A DNA stretch of 64,000 nt from IMG/VR virus record IMGVR_UViG_3300029998_000015; one strand, given 5' to 3'. A model generated the notes under the pieces. That model ran no database searches. It had not been told where the DNA came from and saw nothing but the letters and a program-made list of their open reading frames with translations. Numbering within the stretch: position 1 is the stretch's first letter; the number at the start of each line of letters is the position of its first letter. This DNA is from an uncultured virus (IMG/VR IMGVR_UViG_3300029998_000015). Its lineage: Duplodnaviria > Heunggongvirae > Uroviricota > Caudoviricetes. A program made the position numbers and the translations under genes. Shown here piece after piece: positions 15,863 through 47,056 of this stretch.

Positions 15863-16045
15863 TTATTTTATTTTAGAAAACACATTTCTATTATAACCAA
15901 TACATAAATTCATATATTCGCCAAACCACCAAAATTCAAAATTGTGCTCAAAATGTTTATCTTCTACGTTTAGATGTTTTAGCCAAATCAATTCATTATC
16001 TTCTGTCAATAATGGAAACCATGCAAATGTTTTATCTTTTTTCAT
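15863..16045 (-). CDS. Small hypothetical protein
   Basis: FAWFP...IWL pattern typical of small phage ORFs. Confidence 0.55.
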   Translation of the reverse strand: MKKDKTFAWFPLLTEDNELIWLKHLNVEDKHFEHNFEFWWFGEYMNLCIGYNRNVFSKIK

Positions 16046-16169
16046 TTAATTTATTTAATTTTTCTTTCCTATCTTTATTACGGAAATGTTTATTCATTTT
16101 CCTTGTAAATTCTTCTAAGATTTTTTTATCAATATCTGGAACTCCATTTATTTTTTTACTAATCAGCAT
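16032..16169 (-). CDS. 45-aa mini-ORF with RKxKL C-tag (not in ORF track)
   Basis: Hand translation MLISKK...DRKEKLNKLNEKR*. Confidence 0.6.
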   Translation of the reverse strand: MLISKKINGVPDIDKKILEEFTRKMNKHFRNKDRKEKLNKLNEKR

Positions 16170-16282
16170 AACTTATCATTTAGTTTTTGTAATTTATTTT
16201 TTCTGATATTATTGACAAATTTCTTGTGAAGTTTAATTGCCAATTCTCTTAATAATTTTATTTGATCTGTAGTTTCTGACAT
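16163..16282 (-). CDS. 39-aa mini-ORF with RKxKL C-tag (not in ORF track)
   Basis: Hand translation MSETTDQ...IRKNKLQKLNDKLC*. Confidence 0.6.
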   Translation of the reverse strand: MSETTDQIKLLRELAIKLHKKFVNNIRKNKLQKLNDKLC

Positions 16283-16284
16283 TA

Positions 16285-16533
16285 TTATATGTTATTCAAA
16301 GTTTCTATTTTTTGTTTTATTAATTCTCTATAATGATATTTATTTGCTTTTTTATACATTTTAATTCCATAATCACTTCTCTTATACCATTTAATAAATT
16401 GATTTTGTGTTGGTATTTTCTCTTCATAATAATTTTCAGAATGAAAATCTTGAATACAGAAGAAATATGCTAAATCATCTAATAAAGTTGAAACATTATA
16501 ATCCCATATTCCAAATTGTTTATCAATTACCAT
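16285..16533 (-). CDS. DxIAY-family small protein
   Basis: IDKxxGxW...LDDLAY...YKKA; variant C-tag IKQKIETL. Confidence 0.65.
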   Translation of the reverse strand: MVIDKQFGIWDYNVSTLLDDLAYFFCIQDFHSENYYEEKIPTQNQFIKWYKRSDYGIKMYKKANKYHYRELIKQKIETLNNI

Positions 16534-16534
16534 A

Positions 16535-16831
16535 TTATTTCATATATGAAAACCTAAACAATCCTTTTTCATTAATGGTAAATGATTCAATTATTTTCAT
16601 ATCTTCATCTGATTTTTTAGTTTCATATGACCATTTACCGCCATCATCAAATACAAATTCATTTTCTGTTGTTGAATCTAATCTTTCAGTTAGACGATCA
16701 TTTTCTTTGCTAATTTTAAGAAGTTCTTTAAAATACTCATCTCTAACTTCTGGTGTTGTGAAGATCGTTTCATCTGGGGTTTGTTCATCTCCATATCTAT
16801 ATGATATTTCGTAAATTTTATATACTTTCAT
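16535..16831 (-). CDS. Hypothetical protein
   Basis: 98-aa ORF in coupled array. Confidence 0.6.
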   Translation of the reverse strand: MKVYKIYEISYRYGDEQTPDETIFTTPEVRDEYFKELLKISKENDRLTERLDSTTENEFVFDDGGKWSYETKKSDEDMKIIESFTINEKGLFRFSYMK

Positions 16832-18623
16832 ATTCTTTAAGTTTATCTATTTTTTGTTTTCTTTCAGTTTTAATATCTAATTTGAATCGTTTAATTTTAT
16901 ATCTCAAATCGGAATTTCCTACTAATGATAAGTAATATTTATTAAATTTTACACTGAAATGAATTTGTTTAATTTTATATTTTTTACCAAATTCTAATAT
17001 TGTATTGTTATTATTAATTACAACTACATCATCACCAATTTTCAAATATTCAATTTTTATTTTTGACATAAGATTTCAATTTTTTTCTTTCTTGATGTTT
17101 TTAAATCAAAATCAAATCTATAACTGAAATATTTTTGTTCACCAGACTCTATGAATGTTAAATAATGATTATGTTCAGGAATATTATCTAATGATTCTCT
17201 ATGAAAAACTCCACTAATTGTATATTTTTTAGTCAGAATTAAATTGTTATTACTATCATCAATAACAATAACTTTATCTCCAATTTTAAAAGATTTTATT
17301 TTTTGCATAGTTGTTTAAGTTTTTTATTTCTTGATGTTTTCAAATCATATTTAAATCTATACGGAAAATATATAATTAATGCAGTTTCTTTAAGTCTTAC
17401 ACAAAAATTATAGTCATCAAAATCAGAGTTATTATAAATAATTTCACTAATTGTATATTTTTTATTTAATGTCAATAAAGAATGAGTGACATCAGTAGCA
17501 ATTACTTTATCACCAATTTTTGATGTTTTGAGGTTAATCATTTGATATTTTATTTAATTTTTCCTTTCGGATGTAGTTTAAATCAATATCAAATCTAAAA
17601 TCATAATATAACTTATTACCAGTCTCAATCAATCTAATTCGGTCATTACATGAATTATCACAAACATCAATATAACTAATTGTGTATTTTTTATTTAATA
17701 TTAATTCAGAAAAATTAACATTGACTGCAATTACTTTATTTCCTATTTTTAATTTTTTAATGTCAATCATGATTTGATATTTTATTTAATTTTTCCATCC
17801 TGATTGATTTAATATCAGAATTAAATCTATCTATTAAATATCTAGTATCTCTCATTTTGAAAAGTTTAAATTGATATACATTAAATTCTTCTATGTGAAC
17901 AATTTCTTTGATTTTATATATTTTACCAATTTCTAAATTGCTCATATCAGTAGAAACTGCAACAACTTCAGAATTGACTTGTATATTTTTAATATCAATT
18001 GGTTTTAGCATTTATTTATTTTTTCTAATTTATTTTTTCTAATATCATTCAAATCAATATCAAATCTACTAATTAAAAATCCTTCATCTCCCATATGATA
18101 TAATTTAAAATAGTATTGCTCTATACTATGAAAATAATCAATTTCTTTAATATAATATTTTTTATTTAATTCTAAACTAGTGTTACCTATATTAACTGCA
18201 ATAACAGTATCATTAATATGAATATTTTTAATGTCTATATTTTGTATCATTTATTTAGTTTTTCTAATTTATGCTTTCTAATTTCAGATGCTGTTATAAA
18301 ATTAGGAATATAATTAAACATACCTGGAATTTCTTGAGTGAAAAAGAAATTAGGATCATCAAGTACATAAGAATCAAATGTAACAATCTTATTATCGTCA
18401 TATCTGTACCTTAATACATCTCCTTTTCTTAACATTTACTCAGTTTTTTAAGTTTCTGTTTTCTAAATTCTGATAATGTAATGCAATTATCTACATAATG
18501 AAAATATTCATCTTCATATATAAAAAAATAATGGGATAATATATTATTAGCACTATATTTTTTAAATGTAAAAACTTCATTGCTAAATGACTTATCAATA
18601 ATTTTATCTCCTAAATTGAACAT
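16818..18623 (-). other. Tandem array of 8 paralogous SH3/KOW-like small ORFs with RKxKL C-tag (16818-17069, 17057-17308, 17296-17541, 17534-17770, 17763-18011, 18005-18250, 18247-18435, 18429-18623)
   Basis: KIGDxV...LxxxKxYxI...RF.xD.xxxRKxK[LI] pattern; overlapping start/stop codons. Confidence 0.85.
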
Positions 18624-18729
18624 TACTCAGTTTTTTAAGTTTCTGTTTTCTTTTTTTATTCTTCAGCATTAAACAGTAATATTTTAAAGTCTGTACTGCA
18701 TTCAGAACAATTTTACTTTCAGTTTTCAT
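18604..18729 (-). CDS. 41-aa mini-ORF with RKQKLKKL tag (not in ORF track)
   Basis: Hand translation MKTESK...KRKQKLKKLSNVQFRR*. Confidence 0.55.
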   Translation of the reverse strand: MKTESKIVLNAVQTLKYYCLMLKNKKRKQKLKKLSNVQFRR

Positions 18730-18856
18730 TACAGTTTTTAATATTTAAAAGCTTCTGTTTTCTTAACATCATATTAATCTTAAATTTTATTTCAGATTCT
18801 GTAGATTTAGATAGTTGCCTAATATGAACATATGGTTTATTATAGTTTATAATCAT
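18719..18856 (-). CDS. 45-aa mini-ORF with RKQKLLNI tag (not in ORF track)
   Basis: Hand translation MIINYNKP...LRKQKLLNIKNCNEN*; ATGA-coupled to 18853 stop. Confidence 0.6.
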   Translation of the reverse strand: MIINYNKPYVHIRQLSKSTESEIKFKINMMLRKQKLLNIKNCNEN

Positions 18857-19238: not shown

Positions 19239-19448
19239 TTATGGTTCATAAATACCATAACCATTAATATAACACTTCTTTTTAATAGTTGTTAATTTTA
19301 CCTTTATTGCATCATCATTTAAAGGCTTAATTGATATTATAATTAAGCCGTCATCAAATGATGATGCTGATGAAATTGTTTCTTTATTATGTACAACACT
19401 GTGCATATAAACATATTCAGGAATATTTAAACTATTAGTTGTTATCAT
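19239..19448 (-). CDS. Small protein (paralog of the C-terminal part of 19452..19838)
   Basis: NIPEYVY...IKxKCxINGYGxYxP. Confidence 0.65.
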   Translation of the reverse strand: MITTNSLNIPEYVYMHSVVHNKETISSASSFDDGLIIISIKPLNDDAIKVKLTTIKKKCYINGYGIYEP

Positions 19449-19451
19449 ATA

Positions 19452-19838
19452 TTAAGAGTTATTAGGATCATAATATCCATAACCATTTATATTACATTTT
19501 TCCTTTATGTTGGTTATTTTTATTTTTTCAGACTTATCTGATAAAGGCTCTGTTGAATAATATTCATTTTTATAAACATATTCAGGAATATTTTTTCTGA
19601 ATTCTTCATATTTATTATCATAATGATGTTTTAAAAAATAAAAAACCAAACAAGATAATACAGGAATAATAAGCATTGACAATTGAATAATAATTGAATC
19701 TGTGATATAATTCATTGAATTTAATTGAATATGTTTAAAATCAAGAATATATGTGACAATAATCGCAAACAATGACATCAATTGAAAAGTTTCAATAACT
19801 TTTAAATACATCTTTAAATCTTCTTTTTTGATTTTCAT
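19452..19838 (-). CDS. Membrane protein, 2 TM plus NIPEYVY domain
   Basis: Hydrophobic segments; shares C-domain with 19239 ORF. Confidence 0.65.
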   Translation of the reverse strand: MKIKKEDLKMYLKVIETFQLMSLFAIIVTYILDFKHIQLNSMNYITDSIIIQLSMLIIPVLSCLVFYFLKHHYDNKYEEFRKNIPEYVYKNEYYSTEPLSDKSEKIKITNIKEKCNINGYGYYDPNNS

Positions 19839-19843
19839 AATTT

Positions 19844-20203
19844 TTATTTTAACAATTTCAATTTTAATAATCTTGAATATTTACTAATTTCTTTATTGTA
19901 TTCTTTTTTCTCACGTAGAGTAATATAATCTTTATATAATAAATCTTTATAATAAGATATTTTATTCTTATATAAATCTATACGTCTTAATGTTTTTATT
20001 TTTTTATAAAACAAAAAACATATTATATTAAAAATAAGAAATATAAAAATCCATTTTTCAGATAAATTATTATCATATAACATATCACCTAATACAAATT
20101 TAGATGGATTAGTTAAGGCAGACAATATAGCAACAATAAAAAAAAGAATCATTATACCAGAACCTATTACAGAAAAAATAGTACAAAGATGAAATATTGT
20201 CAT
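19844..20203 (-). CDS. Membrane protein with RLLKLKLL C-tag variant
   Basis: Two hydrophobic helices. Confidence 0.6.
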   Translation of the reverse strand: MTIFHLCTIFSVIGSGIMILFFIVAILSALTNPSKFVLGDMLYDNNLSEKWIFIFLIFNIICFLFYKKIKTLRRIDLYKNKISYYKDLLYKDYITLREKKEYNKEISKYSRLLKLKLLK

Positions 20204-20206: not shown

Positions 20207-20548
20207 TTAAGCATTCATAACTTTCATAATATCTCTTAATACTGCAGCTTCTTCGTAATTTTCAATTTTAACTGCATCTAACATTTCTTTCTCAATGTGA
20301 TTAACTTTAGAGAACTCAGTAGAATTAGTCCAAGATTTACCACGACTATCTTGAACATCTCCACATCCACATTTTACCTGACGATATTTTGCAACACCTC
20401 CAATATTAATACACTGTGCTCCACATGTTGGACAATACATAGCATCCATAACAATGTATTTTTTACCTTCAATCCGTAATTGACTTTTAATGTTAGTTGT
20501 ATTTGATAAAGATACTACTTCATCACCAATGTTAAATTCTTTTTTCAT
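20207..20548 (-). CDS. KOW-like + Zn-ribbon + UVR (UvrB/C coiled-coil) protein
   Basis: IGDEVV; CPTC...CGC; EMLDAVKIENYEEAAVLRD matches the UVR consensus. Confidence 0.75.
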   Translation of the reverse strand: MKKEFNIGDEVVSLSNTTNIKSQLRIEGKKYIVMDAMYCPTCGAQCINIGGVAKYRQVKCGCGDVQDSRGKSWTNSTEFSKVNHIEKEMLDAVKIENYEEAAVLRDIMKVMNA

Positions 20549-20562
20549 ATTTTAAATTTTTT

Positions 20563-20898
20563 TTAAATTATATTAATGTCTCTTAATAATGATGATAATT
20601 CGTAATTTTCTGTTTTTATTGATTCTGATAGTGCTTCTTTAATATTATCAACGTTCGCAAAATGAAAAGAATCTGTCCAATATTTACCTTTACTCAATGA
20701 AATATTTCCACAACTACATTCAGATTTTTCAAGAGTTGTAAATACTCCAATATTAATTGATTGAATTCCACACTTAGAACAATATGTATAATCAAGAACA
20801 GTATACACTGTTCCTTTCACTCTATTTTGACACAAATTATTTAATGGATTTGTTAATGCAACAACTTTATCTCCTATGCTATGTCTAACTATATTCAT
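20563..20898 (-). CDS. KOW-like + Zn-ribbon + UVR protein (paralog)
   Basis: IGDKVV; CSKC...CSC; LSESIKTENYELSSLLRD. Confidence 0.7.
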   Translation of the reverse strand: MNIVRHSIGDKVVALTNPLNNLCQNRVKGTVYTVLDYTYCSKCGIQSINIGVFTTLEKSECSCGNISLSKGKYWTDSFHFANVDNIKEALSESIKTENYELSSLLRDINII

Positions 20899-21771: not shown

Positions 21772-22683
21772 TCAAAATATCAAACTGGATGGTGTATTCC
21801 AAAGAAAATACAGTTTTGCATTCTCTCTTAAAATGAGATATTTGTATGTATCTTTTTTCATTAAATTCATACAATCAGAATCAATAGAAACAGACATATC
21901 ATTAACATCATAAATTTTAGGACCAAAAGGAAGAGTGCCTAAAAATTTATTAGCGTTACGATTTTCATATACATTCATATATGAAATCAATCTATCATAA
22001 AAAATCTTACTTGCATTATTTTCTATCCATTTATCAATACCATTATTTAATTCAGATTTGTACAATTTTCTGAAAGTTATTTGATCTGCACCAAGTTCTT
22101 TACATCTCAATAGAACCTCATCTACTGTGTGTTCATCATAATCATTAACCATATTTAATGATAATCTCAAATTGAAGTCATGATTTTTAACTAATTTAAT
22201 AGTATCAAAAACATCAAATTTTAATTTTTCATTACAACCTATAATTTTCAAATTTTTATCATTATCAAAAATATTAGAGATTGAAAAGGAAATAGTTGTA
22301 ATTCCAATTTCTCTCAAATGTCCAAGATATTCATCTGTCAATAGAACACCAGTTGTTTGAACTTCTATACTTTTAAAAGGAGTATGAAGTTTAGAATTCA
22401 TCTCTGAAAAAAAGTCTAAGAAATCTCTATTTTGAACTGGCTCACCTGTTCCAGTAAGAACTACAACATTACATCCATTGTCTCTGGCAAACTGTAAACG
22501 ATTGAAATAATCTTTATATTCAATTGAATTTTCAATGATGTCACTTCCTTCAATGTACTCATTGACAACATAATTTATCTTATCAACATACGGATTGGTG
22601 TGAGTTCTACTCACACAAAATTGACAATGATTTACACACTTGTTATTCGTTGGTACTACAATACTTAAACTTTGAATATTCAT
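21772..22683 (-). CDS. Radical SAM protein
   Basis: CVNHCQFC (CxxxCxxC), TGTGEP, VQTTG motifs. Confidence 0.88.
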   Translation of the reverse strand: MNIQSLSIVVPTNNKCVNHCQFCVSRTHTNPYVDKINYVVNEYIEGSDIIENSIEYKDYFNRLQFARDNGCNVVVLTGTGEPVQNRDFLDFFSEMNSKLHTPFKSIEVQTTGVLLTDEYLGHLREIGITTISFSISNIFDNDKNLKIIGCNEKLKFDVFDTIKLVKNHDFNLRLSLNMVNDYDEHTVDEVLLRCKELGADQITFRKLYKSELNNGIDKWIENNASKIFYDRLISYMNVYENRNANKFLGTLPFGPKIYDVNDMSVSIDSDCMNLMKKDTYKYLILRENAKLYFLWNTPSSLIF

Positions 22684-23276: not shown

Positions 23277-23284
23277 CAAAGATA
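23277..23284 (-). promoter_or_regulatory. Bacteroidota -7 element TATCTTTG
   Basis: caaagata on + strand, ~18 nt upstream of ATG 23258. Confidence 0.75.
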
Positions 23285-26253: not shown

Positions 26254-26285
26254 CAAAGATAATATAATTTTAAATACAAACCAAA
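26254..26285 (-). promoter_or_regulatory. Bacteroidota sigma-A promoter (-33 TTTG / -7 TATCTTTG)
   Basis: -7 at 26254-26261, TTTG at 26282-26285, 20-nt spacer. Confidence 0.8.
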
Positions 26286-27246: not shown

Positions 27247-27438
27247 TTAATCATTATTTAAATTGTTATTTTTTATGTATTCTAATTTCTTTTTTCTTAA
27301 ATATTTTAATATGACATCAAAATCAATTGAATCAAGTGGATCTGGATATAAATATTTTTTTGGAATACCAGACGCTAAACTTAATTTTTGATTAAAATAT
27401 TCAACTAACATATCGTAATTCTCAATATCATTGTTCAT
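27247..27438 (-). CDS. Small protein with RKKKL tag
   Basis: YFNQKLSLASGIPKKYL...LRKKKLEYI. Confidence 0.6.
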   Translation of the reverse strand: MNNDIENYDMLVEYFNQKLSLASGIPKKYLYPDPLDSIDFDVILKYLRKKKLEYIKNNNLNND

Positions 27439-28128
27439 TTAATTCTTCTATTTTAATTTTTCTTATTAATCTAATATCATTGCTAAATAATTTACTTTGA
27501 TATATACGTTCTTCAAATCCTACTAACTTAATATGATTAACATATTCATGAATATATTCAACTATGTAAATTTTATTCATTTTTAATTCCGAATTACCAA
27601 TAGTATCTTTAATTATAACAATTTGTTCTCCTATTTTTAAATTACATTTAATTTTTTCAATTTTCATGATTAGGTATTTTTTTCAATTTATCCTTTCTCA
27701 TTGTTTTAATATCGAATTCAAATCTAGTATAAACATAAGGAAATTTGGATTCTTCATCAACTAAAAAAATAAAAATAGTTTTTATATGAGATATTGTGTA
27801 TGATTTTATATAAGGTATTAATTCAAAAGCATTTGTATTATCTATACATATAACTTTATCTCCTGATTTAAATTTATTAATCATTATTTAATATTTCTTT
27901 TAATTTTATTTTTCTTTCATATTTTATATCTTTTTTAAATCTTCTGGAATCCAAATAACACAATTCTTCTGATTCAGATATATTTTCATTAAATGCTATT
28001 TTTGTATATTTGTTATAATCATCATATTTTATGCTAATGATAGTATATTGTTTATTCAACTCTGCAGTAAAACAATTTCTTGCATCACATAAAAATACCT
28101 TATCTCCTATTTTAAAATCACTATTCAT
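27428..28128 (-). other. Three SH3/KOW-like ORFs with RKxKL tag (27428-27667, 27657-27884, 27877-28128)
   Basis: KxGD/ExV...Y.I...DIxxxRKxK[LI]. Confidence 0.8.
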
Positions 28129-29394
28129 TTTTCAATTTTTCTAATTTTATTTTTCGTAATATGTGAGTTGCTTTATTATAATAATCATCATAAGAATGGT
28201 GATTCTTAGTTTCTTTAATAGTATTCATATAAGACATGAAATATGTTTGAGACAATAAAGGATTTTCAGAATCATTTTCAATAATATATTCATTATAATA
28301 CCAATGAACGTATATCTGATAAAACACATCTTCAAGTTCAGAATAAAGAATATCTTTAGACCATCTTCCTATTGATTTATCTATGTGAATATTTGAATAT
28401 TCAATTTCATGCACTGATTTCATATTTCAACTTTTTCAATTTTTCTTTTCTTATTAAATTTTTTGAAATTTTAAATGCTTTTTCATAAAAACCAGATAAA
28501 TAGTAAATAGAATGATAATATCTTAAACACATAAAGTCATTTTGGTCAGAAGTAGAGACTGAACCATATATATCAAAATGACAATTTAGATATAATTGAA
28601 AAGCAATATCATCTACACAATCAGACTCATTGTTTTGACACCAATATCCTATTGTTTTATCTATTAACATTTTCTAATTTTTTTAATTTTTCAATTCTTA
28701 AATTTTTAAATGATTTAATATAAAATGAATACCACGGGCTATTATGAGTATATCTTACTGTTTTAAAATTATTCTGAGGAGAATCATCATTAAAATCTCC
28801 ATATTCTTTATAATAATAATTTAGATATAATTGAAAAGCTATGTCATCTATATAATCAGATTCACCTTCTTTGCACCAATTACCTTTTGTCTTATCTATT
28901 ATCATTTTCTAATTTTTCTAATTTCATTTTTCTTAAAATTATATTAGCTTTATTATAGTTATCGACTATTATTTTTTTATCATATTCAGAAGTATAATTT
29001 TTCATCTGTGATTTGATATATACATAATCCTCAAATATAAATGTTGGACCCCAATTTTGGTTTTTTTTACAATATATCAAATATAATCCATATGCAATTT
29101 TATCAATATCATATTCTAATTGAATTGTCATATTAAGTTATTTATAATATTTAATTTTTCTTTTCTTATTAATGATTTTGCGATTTTTAAAAATTTATTA
29201 CAATAAGGATCACCAATTTCAATCATGTTAATAAATATATTTTGATCATAAGATATATTCACATAATTCTCATTTCCGTCAGAAAATAAATATAGCTGAT
29301 ATGATATATTATATAAATCATTATCTTCTAAATTCCATACTCCTATAGTATAGTCATAATTTCCATAACCTTTATATCCTTTATAATTAGTCAT
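28121..29394 (-). other. Five DxIAY-family ORFs with RKxKL tag (28121-28423, 28407-28670, 28657-28905, 28892-29131, 29128-29394)
   Basis: IDKTxGxW...DDIAFQLY...KA...RKxKL. Confidence 0.8.
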
Positions 29395-29990
29395 TTAATA
29401 ATTTATTTAACTTCTTGTTTCTTAAATATTTTTCAATGTCCTTAATATCAAATTTATCTAAAGAATTATTAATTTCTTCTTTTGATAAATTTTCAATAAG
29501 TACTCCAATTTTATCTGAGACTTCATGAACATTCAGATAATCTCTAATTGAATCTCTAATTGAATTTGTAATTCCAAATGACATAAATGACATAATTATT
29601 TATTTAAATTTTTCAATTTCTTAGTTCTTAAAAATTTCTCAATATCTTTAATTTCAAATTTTTCTAAAGAATCATTTATATCTTCTTTTGATGCATATTT
29701 AATAAGATTATCAATTCTAATTGGTATTTCTCCAACAATGTCATAATTAATGGCTCTTGATATAGTTGAATATAATTCTGATTCTGACATAGAAACTCTT
29801 GATATTTCTCTCATTTTAATTTTTTTAATTTTTTATTTCTTAAAAATTTCTCTATATCTTTAATATCAAACATATTCAAAACTTCTACTATTTCTTCATT
29901 TGAAGAATTTTTTATTATTTCATATACTTCAGTCGCTTTATTATTACCATTACTCCAATAATCAGGCAAATATTTACTTTTTGATGGCAT
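29387..29990 (-). other. Three DIEKxLR-family ORFs (29387-29593, 29596-29814, and unlisted 59-aa 29811-29990)
   Basis: SxEE/DI...LxxFxIKDIEK[FY]LRxKKL shared. Confidence 0.8.
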
Positions 29991-30219
29991 ATTTATTTAT
30001 TTTTTCTAATTTATATTTTCTGACTACTTTGATATCAGAAAACCTACTTATAAATAAAGTTAAATCAGGAAATTCTTTTATTCTTATTAATCCAATTCTT
30101 CTGTGATAAGGCTCAATTATTGTACAAGATTGACCATAAATTAAACTTGTTCCTTCTATATTTAAAATGATTATTTTATCACCTATTTTTAAATTATCAC
30201 TAACTTTTAAATGTTCCAT
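29974..30219 (-). CDS. SH3/KOW-like ORF with RKYKL tag
   Basis: LKIGDKII...RFSDIKVVRKYKLEKI. Confidence 0.7.
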   Translation of the reverse strand: MEHLKVSDNLKIGDKIIILNIEGTSLIYGQSCTIIEPYHRRIGLIRIKEFPDLTLFISRFSDIKVVRKYKLEKINKYAIKK

Positions 30220-30223: not shown

Positions 30224-30493
30224 TTAGATTAGCCAAATTATAGAATTAATTGAGCTTAAATATCTATCATATTCATCTACTCTAATTAAGCATTTTTTTT
30301 TATATATTTCAGTTTCAATTTCATTATCATTACCTATGAAATAGTTATCACTTTGAGTTGTACAATCAACAACATAATGCTCTCCTATACAGCCATATTC
30401 ATCATCTGTATCTTTTAATACTACACTTGATATTTCTTTAATATTAAGTCCTGTCTTTTTTTCTATAAATTTGGTCAATAATTCTTTGTTCAT
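30224..30493 (-). CDS. Hypothetical protein
   Basis: 89-aa ORF. Confidence 0.6.
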   Translation of the reverse strand: MNKELLTKFIEKKTGLNIKEISSVVLKDTDDEYGCIGEHYVVDCTTQSDNYFIGNDNEIETEIYKKKCLIRVDEYDRYLSSINSIIWLI

Positions 30494-30992: not shown

Positions 30993-31490
<498 letters not shown>

Positions 31491-34714: not shown

Positions 34715-34909
34715 CTATATAATTTCTATATTTATAATATCTTTCATTGGATATTTAATTCTTATTGTGTTGTCTTGTTCTAAATGTCCAACAACAATTA
34801 AGAATTTTTTATTTACATAACAACCCTTTGCGTTATACTCATATCCATAAGGAGTTGGATAACTTGTGGTTTCTGATATTTTTATTTTTATTCCTTTAAA
34901 GATTGTCAT
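34715..34909 (-). CDS. Hypothetical protein
   Basis: 64-aa coupled ORF. Confidence 0.55.
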   Translation of the reverse strand: MTIFKGIKIKISETTSYPTPYGYEYNAKGCYVNKKFLIVVGHLEQDNTIRIKYPMKDIINIEII

Positions 34910-35620
34910 GATTTTATTTTTTTGAGTTTTTCTTTTCTTATTTGAGATATTATATCTGATAATTTAATTTTAATAATTTTAATATAACAAACTTCACCGC
35001 CGTATTGTTTTTTATTTAAATGTAAATACACTGAAACTTCAGTATTTTCTTCTATGTGAAAATCATAATCATAAATATGTTTATAATCAGATACAATATC
35101 TAAACGAACTTTATTATGTTTGACATAATGTATAACATCATCAAGATATATCATTTTATATTTTTTGATATTTCTATAAGTTTTTCTTTTCTTAAAATAA
35201 TATTAGCTTTATAATAAAAACTTTTTATAACAGTTCTTTCTCTGTTATAATAATCAATGTCAAATTTTTTATCATAAAGAATATTTTTAAATTCATTTTT
35301 ACTCATTGAATTATATACGCAATCAAAATCAATTCTATTCATATATAATTTATATGCAATATCGTCTAATTTATTTGATGTTATCATAATTTAATATTTT
35401 CTATTTCAATTAATTTTAATTTTCTTATTGTAATTTTTGCGTTATCATAAATTTTTTTAACATCGTCATAAGATGTTCCTCCCCAACTACATTTCTTATA
35501 ATAAATATAATGAAACGAAAATAATGATAAAGGATCATATGTTTTAGAAATATAATTATCAGTATATAATTCATATGCAATATTATCCAATTTAGTTAGA
35601 TTGGTTAGAGATGTTATCAT
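34906..35620 (-). other. Three RKxKL-tagged ORFs (34906-35154; DxIAY family 35151-35387 and 35384-35620)
   Basis: IRKEKLKKI, LRKEKLIEI, IRKLKLIEI. Confidence 0.8.
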
Positions 35621-35897: not shown

Positions 35898-35905
35898 CAA
35901 AGATA
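35898..35905 (-). promoter_or_regulatory. Bacteroidota -7 element TATCTTTG
   Basis: caaagata ~30 nt upstream of ATG 35868. Confidence 0.7.
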
Positions 35906-37996: not shown

Positions 37997-38004
37997 CAAA
38001 GATA
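37997..38004 (-). promoter_or_regulatory. Bacteroidota -7 element TATCTTTG
   Basis: caaagata ~30 nt upstream of ATG 37966. Confidence 0.7.
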
Positions 38005-39244: not shown

Positions 39245-39550
39245 TTATTTTATTTTATTAAAGTCTAATTCTATTAATTCTCCATTATCCATATAATTTT
39301 TAAATTCTTTACTGCTATAATATTCTTTACATGTCATTCCTAATTGAGATTTGCATAATATAACAAAAACATTATCTCTGAAGACAGTATCATTGAATCC
39401 CCATTCAATTGCTAATGATTTTTCATGAGAAGGTAGATTTGTAAATAATTCAAACATAATATCTTGGTTTGAACTAATTGGAAAATCATCAATGTAAAAA
39501 TTACCATCATCTTCACATATTTCATCATATTGTTCTCTATTTATTTTCAT
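39245..39550 (-). CDS. Hypothetical phage protein
   Basis: WGFNDTVFRD motif. Confidence 0.65.
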   Translation of the reverse strand: MKINREQYDEICEDDGNFYIDDFPISSNQDIMFELFTNLPSHEKSLAIEWGFNDTVFRDNVFVILCKSQLGMTCKEYYSSKEFKNYMDNGELIELDFNKIK

Positions 39551-41403
39551 AATCTTTTAATTTTTTTAATTTTTTATTTCGTAATCTATCGTTAGCTTTT
39601 TTATAATATTCATTATAAATATCAAATACATCATGACAAACAACAAATAATTTTATACTTAAATATTTTTCATTATTTAAAAATAATTCATATGCAGTAT
39701 TTTCTATTTCGGTGTATTTATTTCCAACTTCTTGCATTGTTTATTTCTTCAATTTTTTCTTTTCTTAGTATATTTAAAGCTATCTTATATGCTCTAGTTA
39801 TTTTATCAATTTTATATTTAGAATGAATATTAATAAGAATTTTTTGATCTGTAGGATTTTTTCTTGATTCATCATCTTCCATTTCATTTAAATATAATTG
39901 ATAAACTATATCATCTAATATAGTAGAATAATCAGACCATTTTCCTATATCTTTAGTAAATTTCATTTAATTTTATAATTTTTCTTTTTCTAATAATTGA
40001 GATAGCTTTTATATAATATTTTTCGTAATATTTTTCGTAGTTTTCTTCAAGTACACTATCAATAAGGAAAGAATTAAAGCATAGATACACAGTATCATTG
40101 CCAAAAGAAAGCTTAATATCAGAAATATAATACTTATATGCAATGTCATCTATATTTTCAATTTTTTTCTTAATTTTGAACATTTATTAATTTTTCTAAT
40201 TTTAGTTTTCTTATATATTTTTCTAACTTATAATAATACTCATAAAAAGTTTCTTTATTATTTATAAAATATGATTTATTTAAAATATAAACATACTCTC
40301 CATATGTATCATATTGATAATTTTCATATTCTGTATATGCTAAATTATCAATATCACTAATATTATTAATTATCATAATATATTAAGGTTTTCTAATTTC
40401 TTTTTTCTTAGATGTTTTTCTACATTATTGTAATATTCAGGAAAACAATCTTTGTGAAATATAAAAAAATTTTTAGTGAAAACTGATGCGCCTTTTTCAT
40501 ACTTTTCATAATATTCTTTTTCATATATTTCATATGCTAAATTATCAATCTCACTATTATTTATTGTCATAAAATGTTAAGTTTTTCTAATTTATTTTTT
40601 CTTAAATGATTTTTTGCTTTATCATAATATTCACTAAAACTACCTTTATAATATATAAAAAATTCAATAGATATAAAAGATGAACTTATGTAAAATTTTT
40701 TAATTTGTTCTTTGTCACAGCATTCTTCTATATACAATTCATAAGCAGAATTGTCAATATCACTAATATCATCAATATCAATAGTATAATCAATTTTCAT
40801 AAAATATTAAGTTTTTCTAATTTTTGTTTTCTTAAAATATTTTTTGCTGTTTTATAAAAAGAAGTCTCATGATTTTTTCCAGCTATAAATTCAGACTTAG
40901 AAGGAGGAGTAAGATATTCATACAATTTTAATGTATTAAATTCTTCTATGAATATACCATAAGCAATTTCATCAATTGTCATCTAATTTATCTAATTTTT
41001 GTTTTCTTAAATTTTTAATTGCTCTCTCATAATAATCATCTATTACATCGTGTTCATGATATGAATTAAATTTCTGTCCATAATAATGATCCATAATATA
41101 AAGTTGAGATGCAGGACACTTATCATGCCACCTGTACATATCTTTATAATCTAATAGATAATATTGATATGCTAAATTATCAGATTCAGTAATATTACTT
41201 TCAGGAGATTTATAAGGTTCCTCACTCTTTAATATTTCACCTGTAAGTAAAATTGAAAAATCATCTAGAATACTCTCTTCTTCTGATTCATCAGAATTTT
41301 CAACATCAACTTTGACTTCATTTTCTAATTCAACATCAACTTCAGTATTATTTGAAGTTTTTTTTAATTTAAATATTCCTTTTATTAATTTTTTAATCCC
41401 CAT
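39537..41403 (-). other. Tandem array of 8 DxIAY-family ORFs with RKxKL tag (39537-39737, 39718-39966, 39953-40183, 40170-40376, 40373-40570, 40567-40800, 40797-40982, 40972-41403)
   Basis: [IS]D[DNE]xAY...YYxKA...LRKxKL; overlapping genes. Confidence 0.85.
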
Positions 41404-41708
41404 AATATTTGTGTTGTTTCTTCTTCTCCATATTTTGAAGTTAAAAGTATCATAATTTTTTCATAAAATGTTTCGTAATATAATATATTTTTATGATGAA
41501 TCATAGAAGTTAAAATTCCTATTAAAATAGTATCATCATATTTTTCAATATCAATATTCTTTAATATATCATTAACAATATTTGTAGCATCTTTTAAACA
41601 CAGAAATCTAGATATGTAGCAAAAGATATAATCTAGTACATCATCAACACTTTTTATTTTTATAATAGTATCTAATTCTATTATAAATTCATATGATACA
41701 TTAATCAT
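41385..41708 (-). CDS. Hypothetical helical protein
   Basis: 107-aa ORF. Confidence 0.6.
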   Translation of the reverse strand: MINVSYEFIIELDTIIKIKSVDDVLDYIFCYISRFLCLKDATNIVNDILKNIDIEKYDDTILIGILTSMIHHKNILYYETFYEKIMILLTSKYGEEETTQILWGLKN

Positions 41709-42036
41709 ATGATTTTATTTTTAATAACTTATATTTTCTTAATAAATTTAAATCAAAATCTTCTTTAATAACAGAAAAAAATAAAATGTTATTATTATAT
41801 TCATTGAAATTTTTTCTTTTATCTAAATCACTTTTAATATCACCAATCAAATTATTTGGTAAATTTGAAATATATATTGGAAATTTAGGTGGTGAATACA
41901 TATTTACAAATGTAATATCTACATTAGGACCATCTAGCCATTTATATCCTTTAGAAAATAACTCAATTTGAATTTTTTCTAATTCTGATACATTATCTAT
42001 AGAATATAAAATATATGGTTTAGTTTTATTAATCAT
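41701..42036 (-). CDS. Hypothetical protein with RKYKL tag
   Basis: IQIELFSKGYKW...LLRKYKLLKI. Confidence 0.65.
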   Translation of the reverse strand: MINKTKPYILYSIDNVSELEKIQIELFSKGYKWLDGPNVDITFVNMYSPPKFPIYISNLPNNLIGDIKSDLDKRKNFNEYNNNILFFSVIKEDFDLNLLRKYKLLKIKSYD

Positions 42037-42052: not shown

Positions 42053-42060
42053 CAAAGATA
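42053..42060 (-). promoter_or_regulatory. Bacteroidota -7 element TATCTTTG
   Basis: caaagata 16 nt upstream of ATG 42036. Confidence 0.7.
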
Positions 42061-42095: not shown

Positions 42096-42284
42096 TTATT
42101 TTATACTATCTTTGACATAAACACTTATTTCATTATAATCATAATCAATTATTATTTCATACACCTTATATCTTTTATTTTTAAAGTAAATGATGTCGTC
42201 TATTCTTGGAATAATAGTTTGATACAAAATTTCATCTAATGGTGATTCAACATCATTCAACCCACCACATATTTTGATTTGCAT
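42096..42284 (-). CDS. Small beta-rich protein
   Basis: IPRIDDII...YKV. Confidence 0.55.
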   Translation of the reverse strand: MQIKICGGLNDVESPLDEILYQTIIPRIDDIIYFKNKRYKVYEIIIDYDYNEISVYVKDSIK

Positions 42285-42601
42285 AATTTATCTATTTTAT
42301 TGATTTTTTCTTTTCTAATTGTTTTTATATCATAAAACCATTTTGGAATAAATTCGGAATCAAAATAATCATTTTTAATATTATATGTAATATGAATATC
42401 TGGACTACAATTATTTGTGGTACCAGAAGTATATGAACTTATATTCACATCCACAAAAATGATATTATCTATTTTGTATTTTTCGTTTTTTATAAAAAAT
42501 GGTTTTCTAAAAAAATTATTAACAATCTTAACACCAGATTTTTTTGATACATTATCCAGATAATAATCATCTTTACATATTAAATAATCGCCTATTTGCA
42601 T
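42257..42601 (-). CDS. SH3/KOW-like ORF with RKEKI tag
   Basis: MQIGDYLICK...FYDIKTIRKEKINKI; paralog of 46781. Confidence 0.7.
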   Translation of the reverse strand: MQIGDYLICKDDYYLDNVSKKSGVKIVNNFFRKPFFIKNEKYKIDNIIFVDVNISSYTSGTTNNCSPDIHITYNIKNDYFDSEFIPKWFYDIKTIRKEKINKIDKLCKSKYVVG

Positions 42602-42807
42602 ATTTCTTCTAATTTCAATTTCCTTGTAGTTTTAATATCATATACAGGAGTTAATTTTTCATAACACGTTTCTCCTGTCATAGAGTTATTAAGATAAAAC
42701 ACGAAATCTCCATATTCATATTTAATATCAACTCTATAAGAATCAGTAGAATATTTAACGTTATATTCATTCAACAAATACAATATTTTATCTTTTCTCA
42801 TCATCAA
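42592..42807 (-). CDS. Small protein with RKLKL tag
   Basis: YDIKTTRKLKLEEI. Confidence 0.6.
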   Translation of the reverse strand: MMMRKDKILYLLNEYNVKYSTDSYRVDIKYEYGDFVFYLNNSMTGETCYEKLTPVYDIKTTRKLKLEEICK

Positions 42808-43264
42808 AAAATTCTTTGCTTATTTCATTCAGCATTTTACCTAATAGATTTTGTCCCCAATCATCAATGTTACTTAATGCATCATAATCAGAAAACCCAA
42901 TACCCCATATTCTATCTTTTGGATTTGCTTCAACTAAAATATAATCTTTATATTTATACATTAGATTTTTAAAATTAGGATTTTGTGAAAATTTTTCTCG
43001 TAATCCTTTTTTTACTACATCATATCTAACATTATTCCAAACATCATCAATGTAGTTTTTAACTTTACGACCAAGCTTTTTTTGGTCAGAAGGAGAACTA
43101 GAGTTCATTATTTTTCTAGCTGTTTCAATATCATTAAACCAAATAGCTTTCTGATGCATCATATACTGTTCTCCGCAATTATATGTCACATCATCTACTG
43201 TAAAAATAGAAGGAAACCAATTGCTGAATTCACCTTTAAGGAAAAATTTATAATTCTTTTTCAT
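42788..43264 (-). CDS. ybiA: NADAR family protein (YbiA-like)
   Basis: FSNWFPS, EQYMMHQKA, KKLGRKV, KFSQN, LVEANPKDRIWGIG, GQNLLGKML. Confidence 0.93.
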   Translation of the reverse strand: MKKNYKFFLKGEFSNWFPSIFTVDDVTYNCGEQYMMHQKAIWFNDIETARKIMNSSSPSDQKKLGRKVKNYIDDVWNNVRYDVVKKGLREKFSQNPNFKNLMYKYKDYILVEANPKDRIWGIGFSDYDALSNIDDWGQNLLGKMLNEISKEFFDDEKR

Positions 43265-43641
43265 TATTTATTTTTTTTAATTTATATTTTCTTGTTTCTT
43301 TATTTAATTGTTTTCCTAATTCAATAACATCATCATAACTAAAATTATTAAATATTCCTATATCATAATATTCTTGACAAACATTTAATTTTTTAAAAAT
43401 AAATGTTTCTCTAGCAATTTTTTTTGCTAATCCTTTTATATCAATGAGTTTTTCCATTAATTTTAATTAATTTTTTACTTCTTTGAGCAATGTTTATATA
43501 CTTTCTCAATTCTATCATATCTAAATCTTGGCAAAAACTCAATCCTTCTACAACACAAATTATATTATCAACATTAGTATTTTTAAATACTGAATCATTA
43601 ACTAAATCTTTTGCTAATTCTTTAATATCAAATTTTTTCAT
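43248..43641 (-). other. Two paralogous DIKxLAK ORFs with RxxKL tag (43248-43457, 43441-43641)
   Basis: DIKxLAK...FK...IEL...RKYKL / RSKKL. Confidence 0.7.
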
Positions 43642-43819
43642 AAATATTATAAATTAAATGTGATGTATAATATAAAATATAGAATAAAACAACGTTTATA
43701 ATTGACGAAACAAATACAGTTGAGCTTAATGTTATATTTAATGAATATACACAAGATGATATAATAATCATAACTGATACGATAGAAAACAAAATAACAA
43801 TAAAATAGTTATTTTTCAT
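43628..43819 (-). CDS. Small 2-TM membrane protein
   Basis: Hydrophobic. Confidence 0.5.
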   Translation of the reverse strand: MKNNYFIVILFSIVSVMIIISSCVYSLNITLSSTVFVSSIINVVLFYILYYTSHLIYNIYEKI

Positions 43820-44841
43820 TTTGAAAATAATCTTTGTATAAAATTCTTTTTATTTATTTTATCAAGTTTTTCTTTTCTTTCTTGTTTTATATCATTTTCA
43901 CTTACCAGCCATTCAATATCAGAGGTATTTTTAATTGATATAAATTTTGATTTGGTCGCTCTTTTAACATAATCAAATTGTGATGGATCAAAACCTGAAA
44001 TGATTTCTAAACTCACTAAATTTATTTTAGATATTCCTCCATTATATTTATCTACTTCTTCAACATAAACCATCACTTTATATTCATATGACTCTGAACT
44101 ACCTATACTTTTACTAAGATTTGTTTTATGAATGTAATATCCTTGAGGTAATTTTGGTTTTTTACTCATGATTATTTTTTATTTATCTCTAAAATTTTAT
44201 CTCTTCTATCATTTTTTAATGTAGGCATCAACCATTCTACTTTATCAGTTTTGACTATTGATACAAATTTATTTTTTGCACATGTCTTCATCCAATCATA
44301 TTTATCAGGATCATCCCCTTTCTCAATTTCTACCTTTTCTAATATTACTCTGGAATAATTATTTTCATACCTTTCTACTTCTATAACATGTAAAAAAACT
44401 GTATATTTATCATATCCTTGTTTTGTCGAAATAGTTTCAAGATAAAAACCTCTTGGTCCTTTTATTGGTTGTTTTTTATTAAACATTTTATTTTGATTTT
44501 TTAATTTGTTTAAGCTTTTCAGCTCTTTCATCATTTAAGGTAGAAATATTTTCTAACCATTGTATTTTATTTGTTTCATAAATTGATACAAATTGTTCTC
44601 TTACACAAGTTTTTATCCAATTAAATTGGTTTATATTCATTCCAGATTTAATTTCTACATTTTCTAGTTTTATTTTTGATAAATTATCTTTATACCTTTC
44701 TAATTCTGATACATGAACTACATAATCATAATCATTACTAGAATTTGATTCATTTTCATTTAATTGAATAGTGCCAGTATAATATCCTTTTAGAATAATT
44801 GGCTCCTTTTTTTTGCCAAAAATTTTATTTAATAATTTCAT
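43816..44841 (-). other. Three paralogous ~117-aa ORFs with RxxK[LI] tag (43816-44169, 44172-44534, 44488-44841)
   Basis: GxY...VxExxxY...SxxxL..xEI..G...FxSI..T..xxWL shared. Confidence 0.8.
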
Positions 44842-44843
44842 AT

Positions 44844-45461
44844 TTAATTATTTTTTAATTTGTTACTCAATTCAATAAACATATCATACCAATCCTTTGG
44901 CTTGCAAATGTTTTCATCATCATATATTTTTGATTTAATTATATTCATTGAGCCAAAATCATATATTTTTCCAGTTTCTTTAATTTGAATACCAAAATTT
45001 AATATTCTCAATGCATGATAAATATTTTTAGATGCATATTCAAAATTATCATCTTTATATGACAGTATAGCATTATGCCAACTTGATGATGCTAATGTTA
45101 TAACTTTTTTAGAAAATTCTTTTTTATCAAATTTGGAAATTTTAAAATCAAAAGTTTTTTTAACTATCATATCTTCAGGTAAAAATAAACATTCTAATAC
45201 TGACATTTGATAATTATTTATTGCATCTATAAATCCTCCTCTTGAATAACAAGTTCCTTGAATTTCTCTATCAGATGATGATATTGCATTATCTTTAAAT
45301 GATCCACTTGGTAATATTGATCTCTTATAAACTATGATATAATCAAAATCAGAATACTCATCTGCAGTCCCATATATTTGTGATCCGTATGGAAATATGT
45401 TCAATATCTCATTTATGTCTAAATGTAATTCATTACAAATTTCTTCTGCTGTATAGTTCAT
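44844..45461 (-). CDS. Nucleotidyltransferase (pol-beta superfamily)
   Basis: YGSQIYGT...SDFDY (GS + DxD); KNIYHALRIL helix. Confidence 0.85.
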   Translation of the reverse strand: MNYTAEEICNELHLDINEILNIFPYGSQIYGTADEYSDFDYIIVYKRSILPSGSFKDNAISSSDREIQGTCYSRGGFIDAINNYQMSVLECLFLPEDMIVKKTFDFKISKFDKKEFSKKVITLASSSWHNAILSYKDDNFEYASKNIYHALRILNFGIQIKETGKIYDFGSMNIIKSKIYDDENICKPKDWYDMFIELSNKLKNN

Positions 45462-45817
45462 TCTTTTAATATAAATTTTTTAAATATCATCTCTATAATC
45501 TCATCATCACTAGCGCCATATTGTTTATTTTCAGAATCAATTATTGTATATCCTACTTCATCAGAAACATATTTTTTTATGTCTTCTAATTTAGAGTTAT
45601 CTATTTCTTTCCAACCTTCTAAAATTTCATCTTGAATATCTTTGGTACTTTCACCACCTAATTCTACAATTAGTTTATCTGCATTATCATGATATGCACC
45701 ATATGATTTAACTTTCCATCCAATACCAGCAACTTTAGCGTCTAACATTACATGAGACATTGCACTTCTTAACCATTCAAGTTCAATAATTATTTTTTTG
45801 CGATTCATTCTTTTCAT
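45458..45817 (-). CDS. Hypothetical protein
   Basis: 119-aa ORF. Confidence 0.6.
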   Translation of the reverse strand: MKRMNRKKIIIELEWLRSAMSHVMLDAKVAGIGWKVKSYGAYHDNADKLIVELGGESTKDIQDEILEGWKEIDNSKLEDIKKYVSDEVGYTIIDSENKQYGASDDEIIEMIFKKFILKE

Positions 45818-45819
45818 AA

Positions 45820-46083
45820 CTAATATACTATACTTTGTGAAATTTTTTTACCACATCTTTTACAAATATAAATAGGTAAAGTATATCCAGTTGAGTTATG
45901 ATATGGAAATCCATCAACAGGATCAGTATAACCTATTATTTCATCATTTTCAAAATCTACGTCAGGTTCTAATTCAGATAATTCTTCGCAATAACACCAT
46001 TCGGGATTTTCTTTAATTTCCTTTTCTAATGCTATTTTACTACGAATTTCTTTATTTTTTTCTTTCGTTATTTTATTTGACAT
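45820..46083 (-). CDS. Small Cys/His-containing protein
   Basis: WCYC...H...CKRC. Confidence 0.55.
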   Translation of the reverse strand: MSNKITKEKNKEIRSKIALEKEIKENPEWCYCEELSELEPDVDFENDEIIGYTDPVDGFPYHNSTGYTLPIYICKRCGKKISQSIVY

Positions 46084-46306
46084 GATTATTTGGTATTACA
46101 ACATCAGTATTAGTATCAAATGAATTCATGATAACTTGTAATGAAACGCCTAACTTAATTGTAGCGTCATAAAACATATGAACATCATCTATTTCTTCAA
46201 GCCAATTATCATGTCCATTTATACAATGTCCATTGTTTTTGTTTTCCTTTGTAGTTCCACAAGTAATACAGATTGCTTCTGCAGAATGATAGTTATTTTC
46301 TATCAT
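46073..46306 (-). CDS. Small Zn-finger-like protein
   Basis: CITC...CINGH. Confidence 0.55.
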   Translation of the reverse strand: MIENNYHSAEAICITCGTTKENKNNGHCINGHDNWLEEIDDVHMFYDATIKLGVSLQVIMNSFDTNTDVVIPNNHVK

Positions 46307-46812
46307 ATAGTTTCAAGTTTTAATGTTTTTGTAATAGGGTCTAAAAGTACTATATTATACTTATCATCAGATAATATTGTATAATTTGATATTTGAGGAT
46401 TTTTTACATTATCTTTTACTGTATAGCCATCAACATATACAACATTAGATTCTCTAATTTTCAATAAAATTAAGGAATGAATTTTTGTTTGTTTATTTGT
46501 ATATTTAGGATAACATTCTCTCCACTTTTGATTTTTTACTATTATTTTTTTGAAAACTTCTTCAATTGAAAATTTGCCTATTTCACAAACATTTAAATAT
46601 ACTGAGAATTGATTTTGAATGGCATCAGCCATTTCTTCAATCAAATGATCCTCATCGTATGGTTTTTGTGTTATTCCAATAAGTTTACAAACTTCTGCGG
46701 AAAACTCACCATATTCTTCGTTATATTTAAGAAATCTTTCAAGAAATTTTTTACCATCAAGGTGATTTAATTCTGAAATTTCATTCAGAATTTTTTCTAA
46801 TTCTATATTCAT
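46303..46812 (-). CDS. MazG-like nucleotide pyrophosphohydrolase
   Basis: KYNEEYGEFSAEV...EEMADAI...KNQKW (EExxE/ExxD). Confidence 0.8.
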   Translation of the reverse strand: MNIELEKILNEISELNHLDGKKFLERFLKYNEEYGEFSAEVCKLIGITQKPYDEDHLIEEMADAIQNQFSVYLNVCEIGKFSIEEVFKKIIVKNQKWRECYPKYTNKQTKIHSLILLKIRESNVVYVDGYTVKDNVKNPQISNYTILSDDKYNIVLLDPITKTLKLETI

Positions 46813-47056
46813 TTATTTTTTCTAATTTTAATTTTCTAATATCTTGTTCTGAATAAAAATGAGCATTTACAAAATATTCTGAATAATAATGCTCATTAAT
46901 TATATATGATATACTTGTAGTATATGAATTATTGTAAATTACTTTATTGTATATTATATCTTGTATCTTGTATCTTGTATTTTTTTTGAATACTCCAGCA
47001 GATGTGATTTTATAAATGGATTTACATTTACATAATAATTCATCTCCTATTTTCAT
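46781..47056 (-). CDS. SH3/KOW-like ORF with RKLKL tag
   Basis: MKIGDELLCK...DIRKLKLEKI. Confidence 0.7.
   Translation of the reverse strand: MKIGDELLCKCKSIYKITSAGVFKKNTRYKIQDIIYNKVIYNNSYTTSISYIINEHYYSEYFVNAHFYSEQDIRKLKLEKINEYRIRKNSE

Follow-up and report, generated by a model that had tools for sequence, protein, structure and literature searches.

Why would dozens of small phage genes, with little else to unite them, encode proteins that end in the same short peptide? The question is raised by a stretch of 64,000 nucleotides (nt) from an uncultured virus of the Caudoviricetes (IMG/VR record IMGVR_UViG_3300029998_000015), referred to below as the window. Between positions 16032 and 47056, 48 open reading frames (ORFs) of its minus strand carry the motif R-x-x-K-[LI]-x-x-[LI], with 1–13 residues left between the motif and the stop. 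The motif has the strict form RKxK[LI]xx[LI] in 36 of them and a looser one in the other 12. An earlier note on this DNA, made from the sequence alone, had described about 49 small ORFs with a C-terminal R-K-x-K-[LI]-x-x-[LI], all leftward, and our count agrees with it, as does the orientation (48 of 48). Throughout the text we call the motif the tag and the rest of each protein its body. The explanation that we favor, to which we would give about an even chance, is that the tag is a portable docking helix that works at the peptide level and is carried by a variable library of early proteins.

Enrichment and shape of the motif

In a non-overlapping set of ORFs for the region from 13 to 53 kb, 46 of the 113 leftward ORFs were tagged. 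When the residues of whole ORFs were shuffled (2000 shuffles) the mean was 0.28 tagged ORFs and the maximum 3, and when the last 25 amino acids (aa) were shuffled these values were 0.72 and 7, so that composition is not the explanation. This comparison with a composition-matched null had been set beforehand, and the C-terminal enrichment that the note expected came out of it. Away from the C-terminus only 4 motif copies exist in all 152 selected ORFs of the window. At the DNA level, the exact pattern AGAAAANNNAAATTANAAAAANTA is found seven times in the window and not once in 100 shuffles.

The core of the motif reads [IL]-R-K-x-K-L-x-K-[LI]-N. When it is drawn as an amphipathic helix, R0, K3, L4 and L7 fall on one face; hydrophobic residues occupy positions −4, −1, +4, +7 and +10, with the arginine and the lysine on the same face (the segment is short for a judgement on heptads), and Glu is frequent (20–24%) at the x positions. 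The nearest record, G001 (235,318 bases), has 100% of the sampled words in common with the window, which is the reverse complement of G001:144,750-208,749. A hidden Markov model (HMM) built from the window tags recovered the tagged ORFs in G001 without any regular expression, and among its matches of at least 8 bits R0 and K3 were kept in all but one, indicating that R and K are not interchangeable and favoring specific recognition. Altogether 79 of the 413 ORFs of G001 are tagged, distributed over three regions and all but 5 on one strand. The exact DNA pattern was found in at least 125 IMG/VR stretches, often in several copies, and 123 viral loci gave 426 distinct tagged ORFs, with up to 48 in 20 kb. 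The residues trailing the motif in these 426 ORFs, which are C-terminal by the selection criterion, number 0–15 (mode 4–5) and vary both in sequence and in length.

The description of the tag as C-terminal is right for the 48 window ORFs, but it does not extend to all carriers. The HMM revealed a family, F, with 18 paralogues in G001 (116–218 aa, mostly at 216–222 and 232–234 kb), in which the motif lies at residues ~31–49, between two conserved halves that were never found apart. These proteins have four conserved Cys and no Pfam or PHROG match. Two members are in the window, at 30993-31490 on the minus strand (motif at residues ~32–48 of 165) and at 10838-11269 on the plus strand (residues ~32–49 of 143). 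Most family F copies adjoin tail-fibre paralogues, yet follow an early-type promoter box (see below). In a further protein, a fusion of 193 aa, an SH3-like part is followed by the tag and then by a Cys-rich extension. A free C-terminus is therefore not needed. We also discarded an extreme C-terminal degron of the ssrA or MuA type, given the variable trailing residues and the internal copies in the 18 family F proteins and in the fusion.

Selection on the peptide

In most cases the motif ends −1 to +19 nt ahead of the start of the next gene, and in G001 59 of 74 tagged genes overlap the start codon of the gene that follows, versus 47 of 205 untagged ones. Motif and next start being so close, and the genes overlapping, a role at the DNA or RNA level had to be checked, i.e., the motif could contribute the start region of the following gene or act as a recombination linker or cassette site, with the peptide as a by-product. 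The codons vary while the residues stay constant. The Leu/Ile positions are filled with TTA, CTT, TTG, CTA, CTG, ATT, ATA and ATC and never with the equally AT-rich codons for Phe, Tyr, Asn or Lys; the Arg position uses AGA, CGA and AGG, and the third residue of the motif varies freely. The tag is also kept inside proteins and at operon ends where no gene comes after it (for example G001 73931-74263).

Among the 426 tagged ORFs there are 46 pairs of close homologues (55–97% identity), of which 36 independent pairs were used for a count of synonymous (pS) and non-synonymous (pN) differences, a crude one in that codons with several changes are put wholly in one class. The conserved tag positions gave a pS of 0.252 and a pN of 0.076 (pN/pS 0.30), the bodies a pS of 0.271 and a pN of 0.232 (pN/pS 0.86), and the two x positions of the tag a pN/pS of 0.93. 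With a synonymous divergence similar to that of the bodies and a non-synonymous one threefold lower, the tag is under selection as a peptide, and not as DNA or through base composition. The bodies, for their part, evolve almost neutrally. Two earlier claims find support here, namely that AT bias does not account for the fixed spacing of the motif, as codon use and pN/pS both say, and that the domains form a variable library. A DNA-level boundary element (promoter, ribosome-binding site or recombination site) was rejected, since synonymous change in the tag is not reduced, and conservation at the DNA or RNA level in general is, in our opinion, barely credible.

Conservation of individual residues also bears on membrane targeting. 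The tag is a basic amphipathic helix at the C-terminus and one tagged family is a membrane protein (19844-20203, minus strand, with the degenerate tag RLLKLKLL 1 aa from the stop and an 11-member cluster in relatives). However, its hydrophobic face is narrow, with Glu at the x positions as noted, and what is conserved are residues (R0 and K3, at the low pN/pS given above) and not a pattern, whereas known membrane anchors conserve the pattern only. We consider membrane targeting very unlikely. The strict retention of Arg and Lys within a Leu face favors a specific reader over contacts with a membrane or a nucleic acid backbone, or self-packing.

Diversity of the tagged bodies

After trimming the tag, 422 bodies were compared by BLASTP and phmmer and fell into 197 phmmer clusters, the largest with 95 members. 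Profile-profile comparison of the 14 largest groups gave a probability of at most 3% in all 91 pairs. To judge from these sequence comparisons the tag-bearing bodies are unrelated. Together with the two different folds predicted below and the SH3 repeats that exist elsewhere without a tag, this supports the proposal of a tag that forms a module separable from the unrelated proteins bearing it.

Within the window the families distinguished earlier were recovered, all on the minus strand. Family A, SH3/KOW-like, has ten core members, six in tandem at 16818-18250 (16818-17069, 17057-17308, 17296-17541, 17534-17770, 17763-18011 and 18005-18250), three at 27428-28128 (27428-27667, 27657-27884 and 27877-28128) and one at 29974-30219. 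Four divergent A-like ORFs complete it, two of them short (18247-18435 and 18429-18623, spanning 18247-18623), one at 42257-42601 and one at 46781-47056 (RKLKLEKI). The 15 members of family B (DxIAY, helical) form groups of five at 28121-29394 (28121-28423, 28407-28670, 28657-28905, 28892-29131 and 29128-29394), two at 35151-35620 (35151-35387 and 35384-35620) and eight at 39537-41403 (39537-39737, 39718-39966, 39953-40183, 40170-40376, 40373-40570, 40567-40800, 40797-40982 and 40972-41403). Family C (DIKDIEKFL) consists of three ORFs at 29387-29990 (29387-29593, 29596-29814 and 29811-29990) plus a C-like one at 27247-27438 (RKKKLEYI), family D (DIKxLAK) of two at 43248-43641 (43248-43457 and 43441-43641) and family E of three at 43816-44841 (43816-44169, 44172-44534 and 44488-44841). 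The remaining ten are singletons. Besides the membrane protein, they comprise four mini-ORFs at 16032-16169 (45 aa, RKEKLNKL), 16163-16282 (39 aa, RKNKLQKL) and, within 18604-18856, 18604-18729 and 18719-18856; the ORFs at 30490-30759 (RKTKLENL), 34906-35154 (RKEKLKKI) and 31678-32139 (153 aa, RRRKLKNI 13 aa from the stop); one of 111 aa at 41701-42036, which is the first gene after a promoter-like box; and one at 42592-42807 with a second motif copy at residue 4.

AlphaFold2 models computed with family alignments gave two different folds. Family A is predicted to be a small barrel (strands 12–15, 28–36, 46–50 and 63–65, helix 67–80) with a predicted local distance difference test score (pLDDT) of 87, and family B is all-helical, its last helix spanning residues 52–76 (pLDDT 82). 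The family A model matched uL24, NusG-KOW and SH3 chains (Z 6.8–6.1, root-mean-square deviation, rmsd, 1.9–2.5 Å, 51–57 residues aligned), and Foldseek added PsaE, YorP and PetP (E 0.06–0.1), so that, as modeled, the family A body qualifies as an SH3/KOW-like small barrel. For family B there was a weak match to the HMG box of SSRP1 (Z 5.3, rmsd 3.5 Å, 61 aligned), other HMG boxes scoring Z 3.4–4.2, the noise range for helical models; nothing was found at E ≤0.001 in either BFVD or the Foldseek pdb set. The ESM Atlas gave no usable match for one family B and one family F protein, and homologue searches with single family A and B proteins returned only the query or a 96%-identical near-copy. None of 11 window representatives of the tagged ORFs had a Pfam match at the curated cut-off, and the PHROGs matches were marginal.

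Two explanations other than docking are best judged on these data. The tag could be a nucleic acid anchor that keeps the bodies attached to DNA or RNA, of the phage or of the host. The tail has a median net charge of +3, family A resembles KOW, uL24 and Tudor-type barrels (Z 6.8, rmsd 2.3–2.5 Å, 56–57 aligned), family B has the weak HMG-box likeness just mentioned, and in relatives gp32-like and GIY-YIG proteins are tagged. The bodies, however, range from neutral to acidic, with a median net charge of 0 (−3.6 per 100 aa in family B), the fold matches are of the order that common arrangements give, and binding to a backbone would allow R/K swaps, of which none were seen. We regard an anchor of this kind as unlikely. 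Body charge, which we had considered as a sign of DNA binding, was dropped because the bodies are neutral to acidic. The second explanation has no shared partner at all, all carriers descending from one ancestor and the helix being a structural cap retained while the bodies diverged or were replaced. The tandem arrays of paralogues, the high pLDDT of the helix in each model and the nearly neutral change of the bodies are in line with it. But the helix is borne by two different predicted folds and occurs in fusions with known domains, SH3 repeats form their fold in its absence, and an exposed Arg and Lys would not remain invariant in a cap, for which reasons we find this explanation rather improbable.

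Distribution and fusions to known domains

The tag was seen in arrays in viral DNA only. Scanning cellular genomes with the DNA pattern gave 120 loci with one copy each, mostly in short non-coding frames, with no arrays and no clue to the host. In five Bacteroidota genomes, taken from chance pattern matches and examined for host mimicry, the tag profile produced 6 weak matches (≤16.1 bits) in open frames of 25–34 codons; among the cellular proteins of these genomes none has the motif at its end, which is a weak negative. The profile of family A, on the other hand, matched 6,505 representatives at E ≤0.001 among 1.84 billion (537 at ≤1e-10). Among the best 150 of these 6,505 matches, the tag was present on 109 of 109 short proteins, a figure biased upward because the profile itself includes the tag, and on 4 of 41 long multi-repeat proteins. 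In the long proteins the repeats end without a tag, and SH3 repeats with the ending RFELVE are among them. Long proteins from less AT-rich sources (P0003, P0004, P0006 and P0060) have 3–6 tandem family A SH3-like domains without a tag, and P0003 has in addition a large unrelated N-terminal part.

Known domains were sought with Pfam in 100 of the 197 cluster representatives, the longest ones. In relatives of the window, the tag stands behind gp32-like, DUF6794, DUF7448 and GIY-YIG domains, and a weaker form of it behind Tad3 and MazG; the other 92 of the 100 had no Pfam match. Three proteins of relatives (L033:2014-2595, L028:6164-6733 and L065:8948-9595) contain Tad3 (E 1e-32 to 3e-37), followed by a module like the body of the A-like window ORF 42257-42601, and then the tag. 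Tad3 is an inhibitor that blocks ThsB, the sensor of Thoeris, by binding to it (PMC13728456). The suggestion in the earlier note of an anti-defence system gains from this fusion of Tad3 to module and tag, although the link exists in the relatives and not in the window itself.

Tad3 also enters into a further explanation, namely that the tagged proteins pair or bundle with one another through the helix. The helix is amphipathic, with Leu/Ile at i and i+3 and partly at −4, −1 and +10, and small phage proteins are often oligomers. Tad3, a tagged body in the relatives, is described as acting as a homodimer (PMC13728456). Yet the spacing appears not to follow a regular heptad in this short segment, the invariant Arg and Lys sit amid the hydrophobic face, and with one pairing helix on at least 100 co-expressed proteins, pairing would be random. 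Self- or hetero-association through the tag therefore seems improbable to us. A full-text search of the literature, supplements excluded, found nothing that describes the motif or a C-terminal helix common to small proteins of phages.

Promoter-like boxes and expression timing

Upstream gaps of G001 (120 of them) contain the word TATCTTTG 18 times against 0.9 expected, and 18 of its 34 sites in G001 are located 24–74 nt before a gene start. This box agrees with the Bacteroides −7 consensus, TAnnTTTG (PMC4747536). The genes behind it include the tagged arrays, the family F array, and two operons, one with ClpP and one with ClpS and a ClpA-like protein. In the window, a TATCTTTG box of this Bacteroidota −7 type is found at 42053-42060 (minus strand), 24 nt upstream of the tagged singleton 41701-42036, and similar boxes at 52475-52482, 37997-38004, 35898-35905, 26254-26261 and 23277-23284 each precede a leftward gene by 26–38 nt. 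A second word family, TATATATA(G), is also overrepresented in the G001 gaps. For TATATATAG, 11 of 17 sites are 12–101 nt before a gene; it precedes four tail-fibre-like genes at 23–24 nt and an AAA/DUF2201 operon. Neither word is enriched over the whole window, the signal of the boxes being positional. Host-type boxes before the arrays suggest that these would be transcribed early by the host polymerase, and that the host would be a member of the Bacteroidota. To this extent the boxes, which are the one basis for it, agree with the earlier designation of the genes as early. The TATCTTTG and TATATATAG boxes may mark an early/late switch.

Timing is relevant to the possibility that the tag loads proteins into the virion for injection, as a packaging or assembly signal that would do at the C-terminus what the capsid targeting sequence does in T4. 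In T-even phages the polymorphic internal proteins have such a sequence, which is N-terminal, cleaved and acts late. The resemblance is that small, hypervariable phage proteins, otherwise unrelated, have a short constant peptide in common, and one short signal on many polymorphic proteins would fit packaging. Moreover, [LI]xE, the kind of site cut by the prohead protease of T4-type phages, is present at −4 to −2 in 63 of the 426 tags (and within the 8 aa upstream in 79 of 426). In contrast to the T-even case, 85% of the tags have no [LI]xE site at that position, the motif is C-terminal or internal and not N-terminal, and the arrays lie behind early, host-type boxes whereas the tail-fibre genes follow TATATATAG. 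Packaging is, we think, a rather doubtful explanation.

Candidate readers of the tag

To return to docking, we infer a partner to which the helix binds, and the same partner for every tagged protein. The phage would attach the helix to about 200 unrelated, fast-evolving small bodies, whose expression is probably early and from promoters of host type; each body would bring its own activity or target-binding surface, and the constant helix would tie all of them to one specific, conserved macromolecular reader.

Candidates for the reader can be sought in the gene content of G001. Outside the window it encodes ClpS (PF02617, E 4e-16), a ClpA/C-like unfoldase of 844 aa and a bona fide ClpP (PRK14514, 249 bits), at L128:13694-13984, L128:14277-16808 and L130:10390-11142. 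The unfoldase gave one continuous ClpA match (residues 4–809) and a split ClpB match, which indicates a short middle domain, and it has a GIGFG loop of the kind (IGF) that docks on ClpP. The cognate unfoldase and protease that docking adaptors would use are thus encoded in the same genome. The two genes directly after ClpP, for products of 172 and 190 aa, are both tagged at the end. ClpP or ClpS was reported in some jumbo phages by Iyer and colleagues (PMC7824862). With Clp as the reader, the tagged proteins would be either adaptors delivering bound host proteins or timed substrates.

Another candidate is found beside the tagged arrays. A rightward operon at 52548-58017 (plus strand) diverges from the tagged block, follows TATATATAG at 52520-52528, and contains small ORFs, two AAA genes (53495-54931 and 54952-56487) and a DUF2201 metallopeptidase-vWA gene (56509-58017). 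The likeness is to the MoxR-vWA-metallopeptidase pair of group 2.2 jumbo phages, for which the same authors propose a function in virion assembly (PMC7824862); here the operon is located behind a late-type box. A second DUF2201 protein is encoded elsewhere in G001 (L125:3210-4835) and adjoins a rhomboid protease and a sigma factor. We take the phage ClpS-ClpA-ClpP set as the best single candidate, although an unlikely one in absolute terms; about the same likelihood goes to a conserved hub of the host and to the late MoxR-type AAA/vWA-metallopeptidase operon. The most specific version would be a targeted-proteolysis system, in which well over 100 fast-evolving early binders, the Tad3 fusions among them, are addressed by the RKxKLxKL helix to phage ClpS-ClpA-ClpP or to the AAA/vWA-metallopeptidase and the bound host defence and housekeeping proteins are destroyed. 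We put it forward as a long shot.

Several observations weigh against a docking helix with a common reader. A ClpA-like protein and ClpP were found in only one of five other tag-bearing records, which are 18–46% complete, so that this is uninformative and not negative. The terminal helix, with its high pLDDT in the family A and B models, may pack on its own body instead of projecting. The tag always co-occurs with tight gene packing, and growth of the arrays could explain part of its persistence. Finally, window-wide TATCTTTG was observed 10 times against 6.9 expected, and the timing is read from such promoter-like boxes alone.

Comparison with known systems

Among known substrate adaptors of viruses, some carry a constant docking motif, such as the poxvirus ankyrin-PRANC/F-box proteins and NblA, the ClpC adaptor of cyanobacteria and cyanophages. 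The tagged proteins are similar to them in combining a variable binding domain with a short constant helix, in the presence of ClpS, ClpA-like and ClpP genes in the same genome, and in that the Tad3 body of the relatives binds a host immune protein. They differ in having no sequence likeness to these adaptors and in a far larger scale (the 79 of 413 ORFs of G001), and the Clp link comes here from gene content only.

C-terminal docking tips and degrons, e.g., the SSB tip, the clamp-binding ends of T4 gp43, gp33 and gp55, and the Clp signals of ssrA and MuA type, also put a short terminal motif on many proteins, with one hub reading such tips. Theirs are at the extreme C-terminus, whereas here variable residues trail the motif and there are internal copies too. 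The hyperplastic regions of T4-type phages, where mobile promoter/stem-loop cassettes shuffle small genes, share with our arrays a conserved sequence at the boundaries of small early tandem genes. That conservation is at the DNA level and between genes, unlike the situation here, in which the peptide is conserved and synonymous sites are free.

Genomic setting

The window is very AT-rich (guanine plus cytosine 0.20–0.31), and the tagged arrays are part of a leftward gene block of 39 kb (~13.7 to 52.5 kb). Interspersed in the arrays, on the same strand, are untagged enzyme-like genes (R2K ATP-grasp, nucleotidyltransferase, HD phosphohydrolase, radical SAM) at 47290-48156, 44844-45461, 32399-33181 and 21772-22683. 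The same block has three tandem pairs of paralogues without a tag (20207-20898, 19239-19838 and 15450-15860, all on the minus strand), so that duplication alone does not confer one. Tail-fibre-like paralogues (11356-13248 on the plus strand of the window; 222–232 kb in G001) have collagen-like Gly-X-Y stretches, a common N-terminus and Asn-rich repeats.

CheckV estimated the completeness of G001 at 33%, which with its 235,318 bases implies a whole genome of ~700 kb, and relatives of one tagged family sit on contigs of up to 711,471 bases. This size points to a genome among the largest known for phages. There are 16 tRNA genes in G001, in two clusters, 11 of them at L124:2118-3597 and five tRNA-Leu genes at L130:17519-17971, and it also encodes DnaJ, a rhomboid protease, a sigma factor, NusG and an S1 protein. 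DNA of the window was found again in peat metagenome runs. Cultured phages gave distant matches only, such as that of Bacillus phage G to the DUF2201 protein, and a typical family A protein had no tblastn match in the records of cultured phages.

Implications

In a phage genome of one of the largest known kinds, a single peptide handle would be common to about a fifth of all genes. Thousands of metagenomic protein clusters are also tagged, and a large share of the "dark matter" among early phage genes could be organized by one reader. Should that reader be a protease, this would be the first phage-encoded system of targeted degradation, and targeted proteolysis, if true, would be the counterpart in bacterial viruses of the F-box and PRANC adaptor families of eukaryotic viruses. 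The tag would also offer a natural portable tag for work with Bacteroidota. Above all, identification of the reader would give function by association to hundreds of orphan families.

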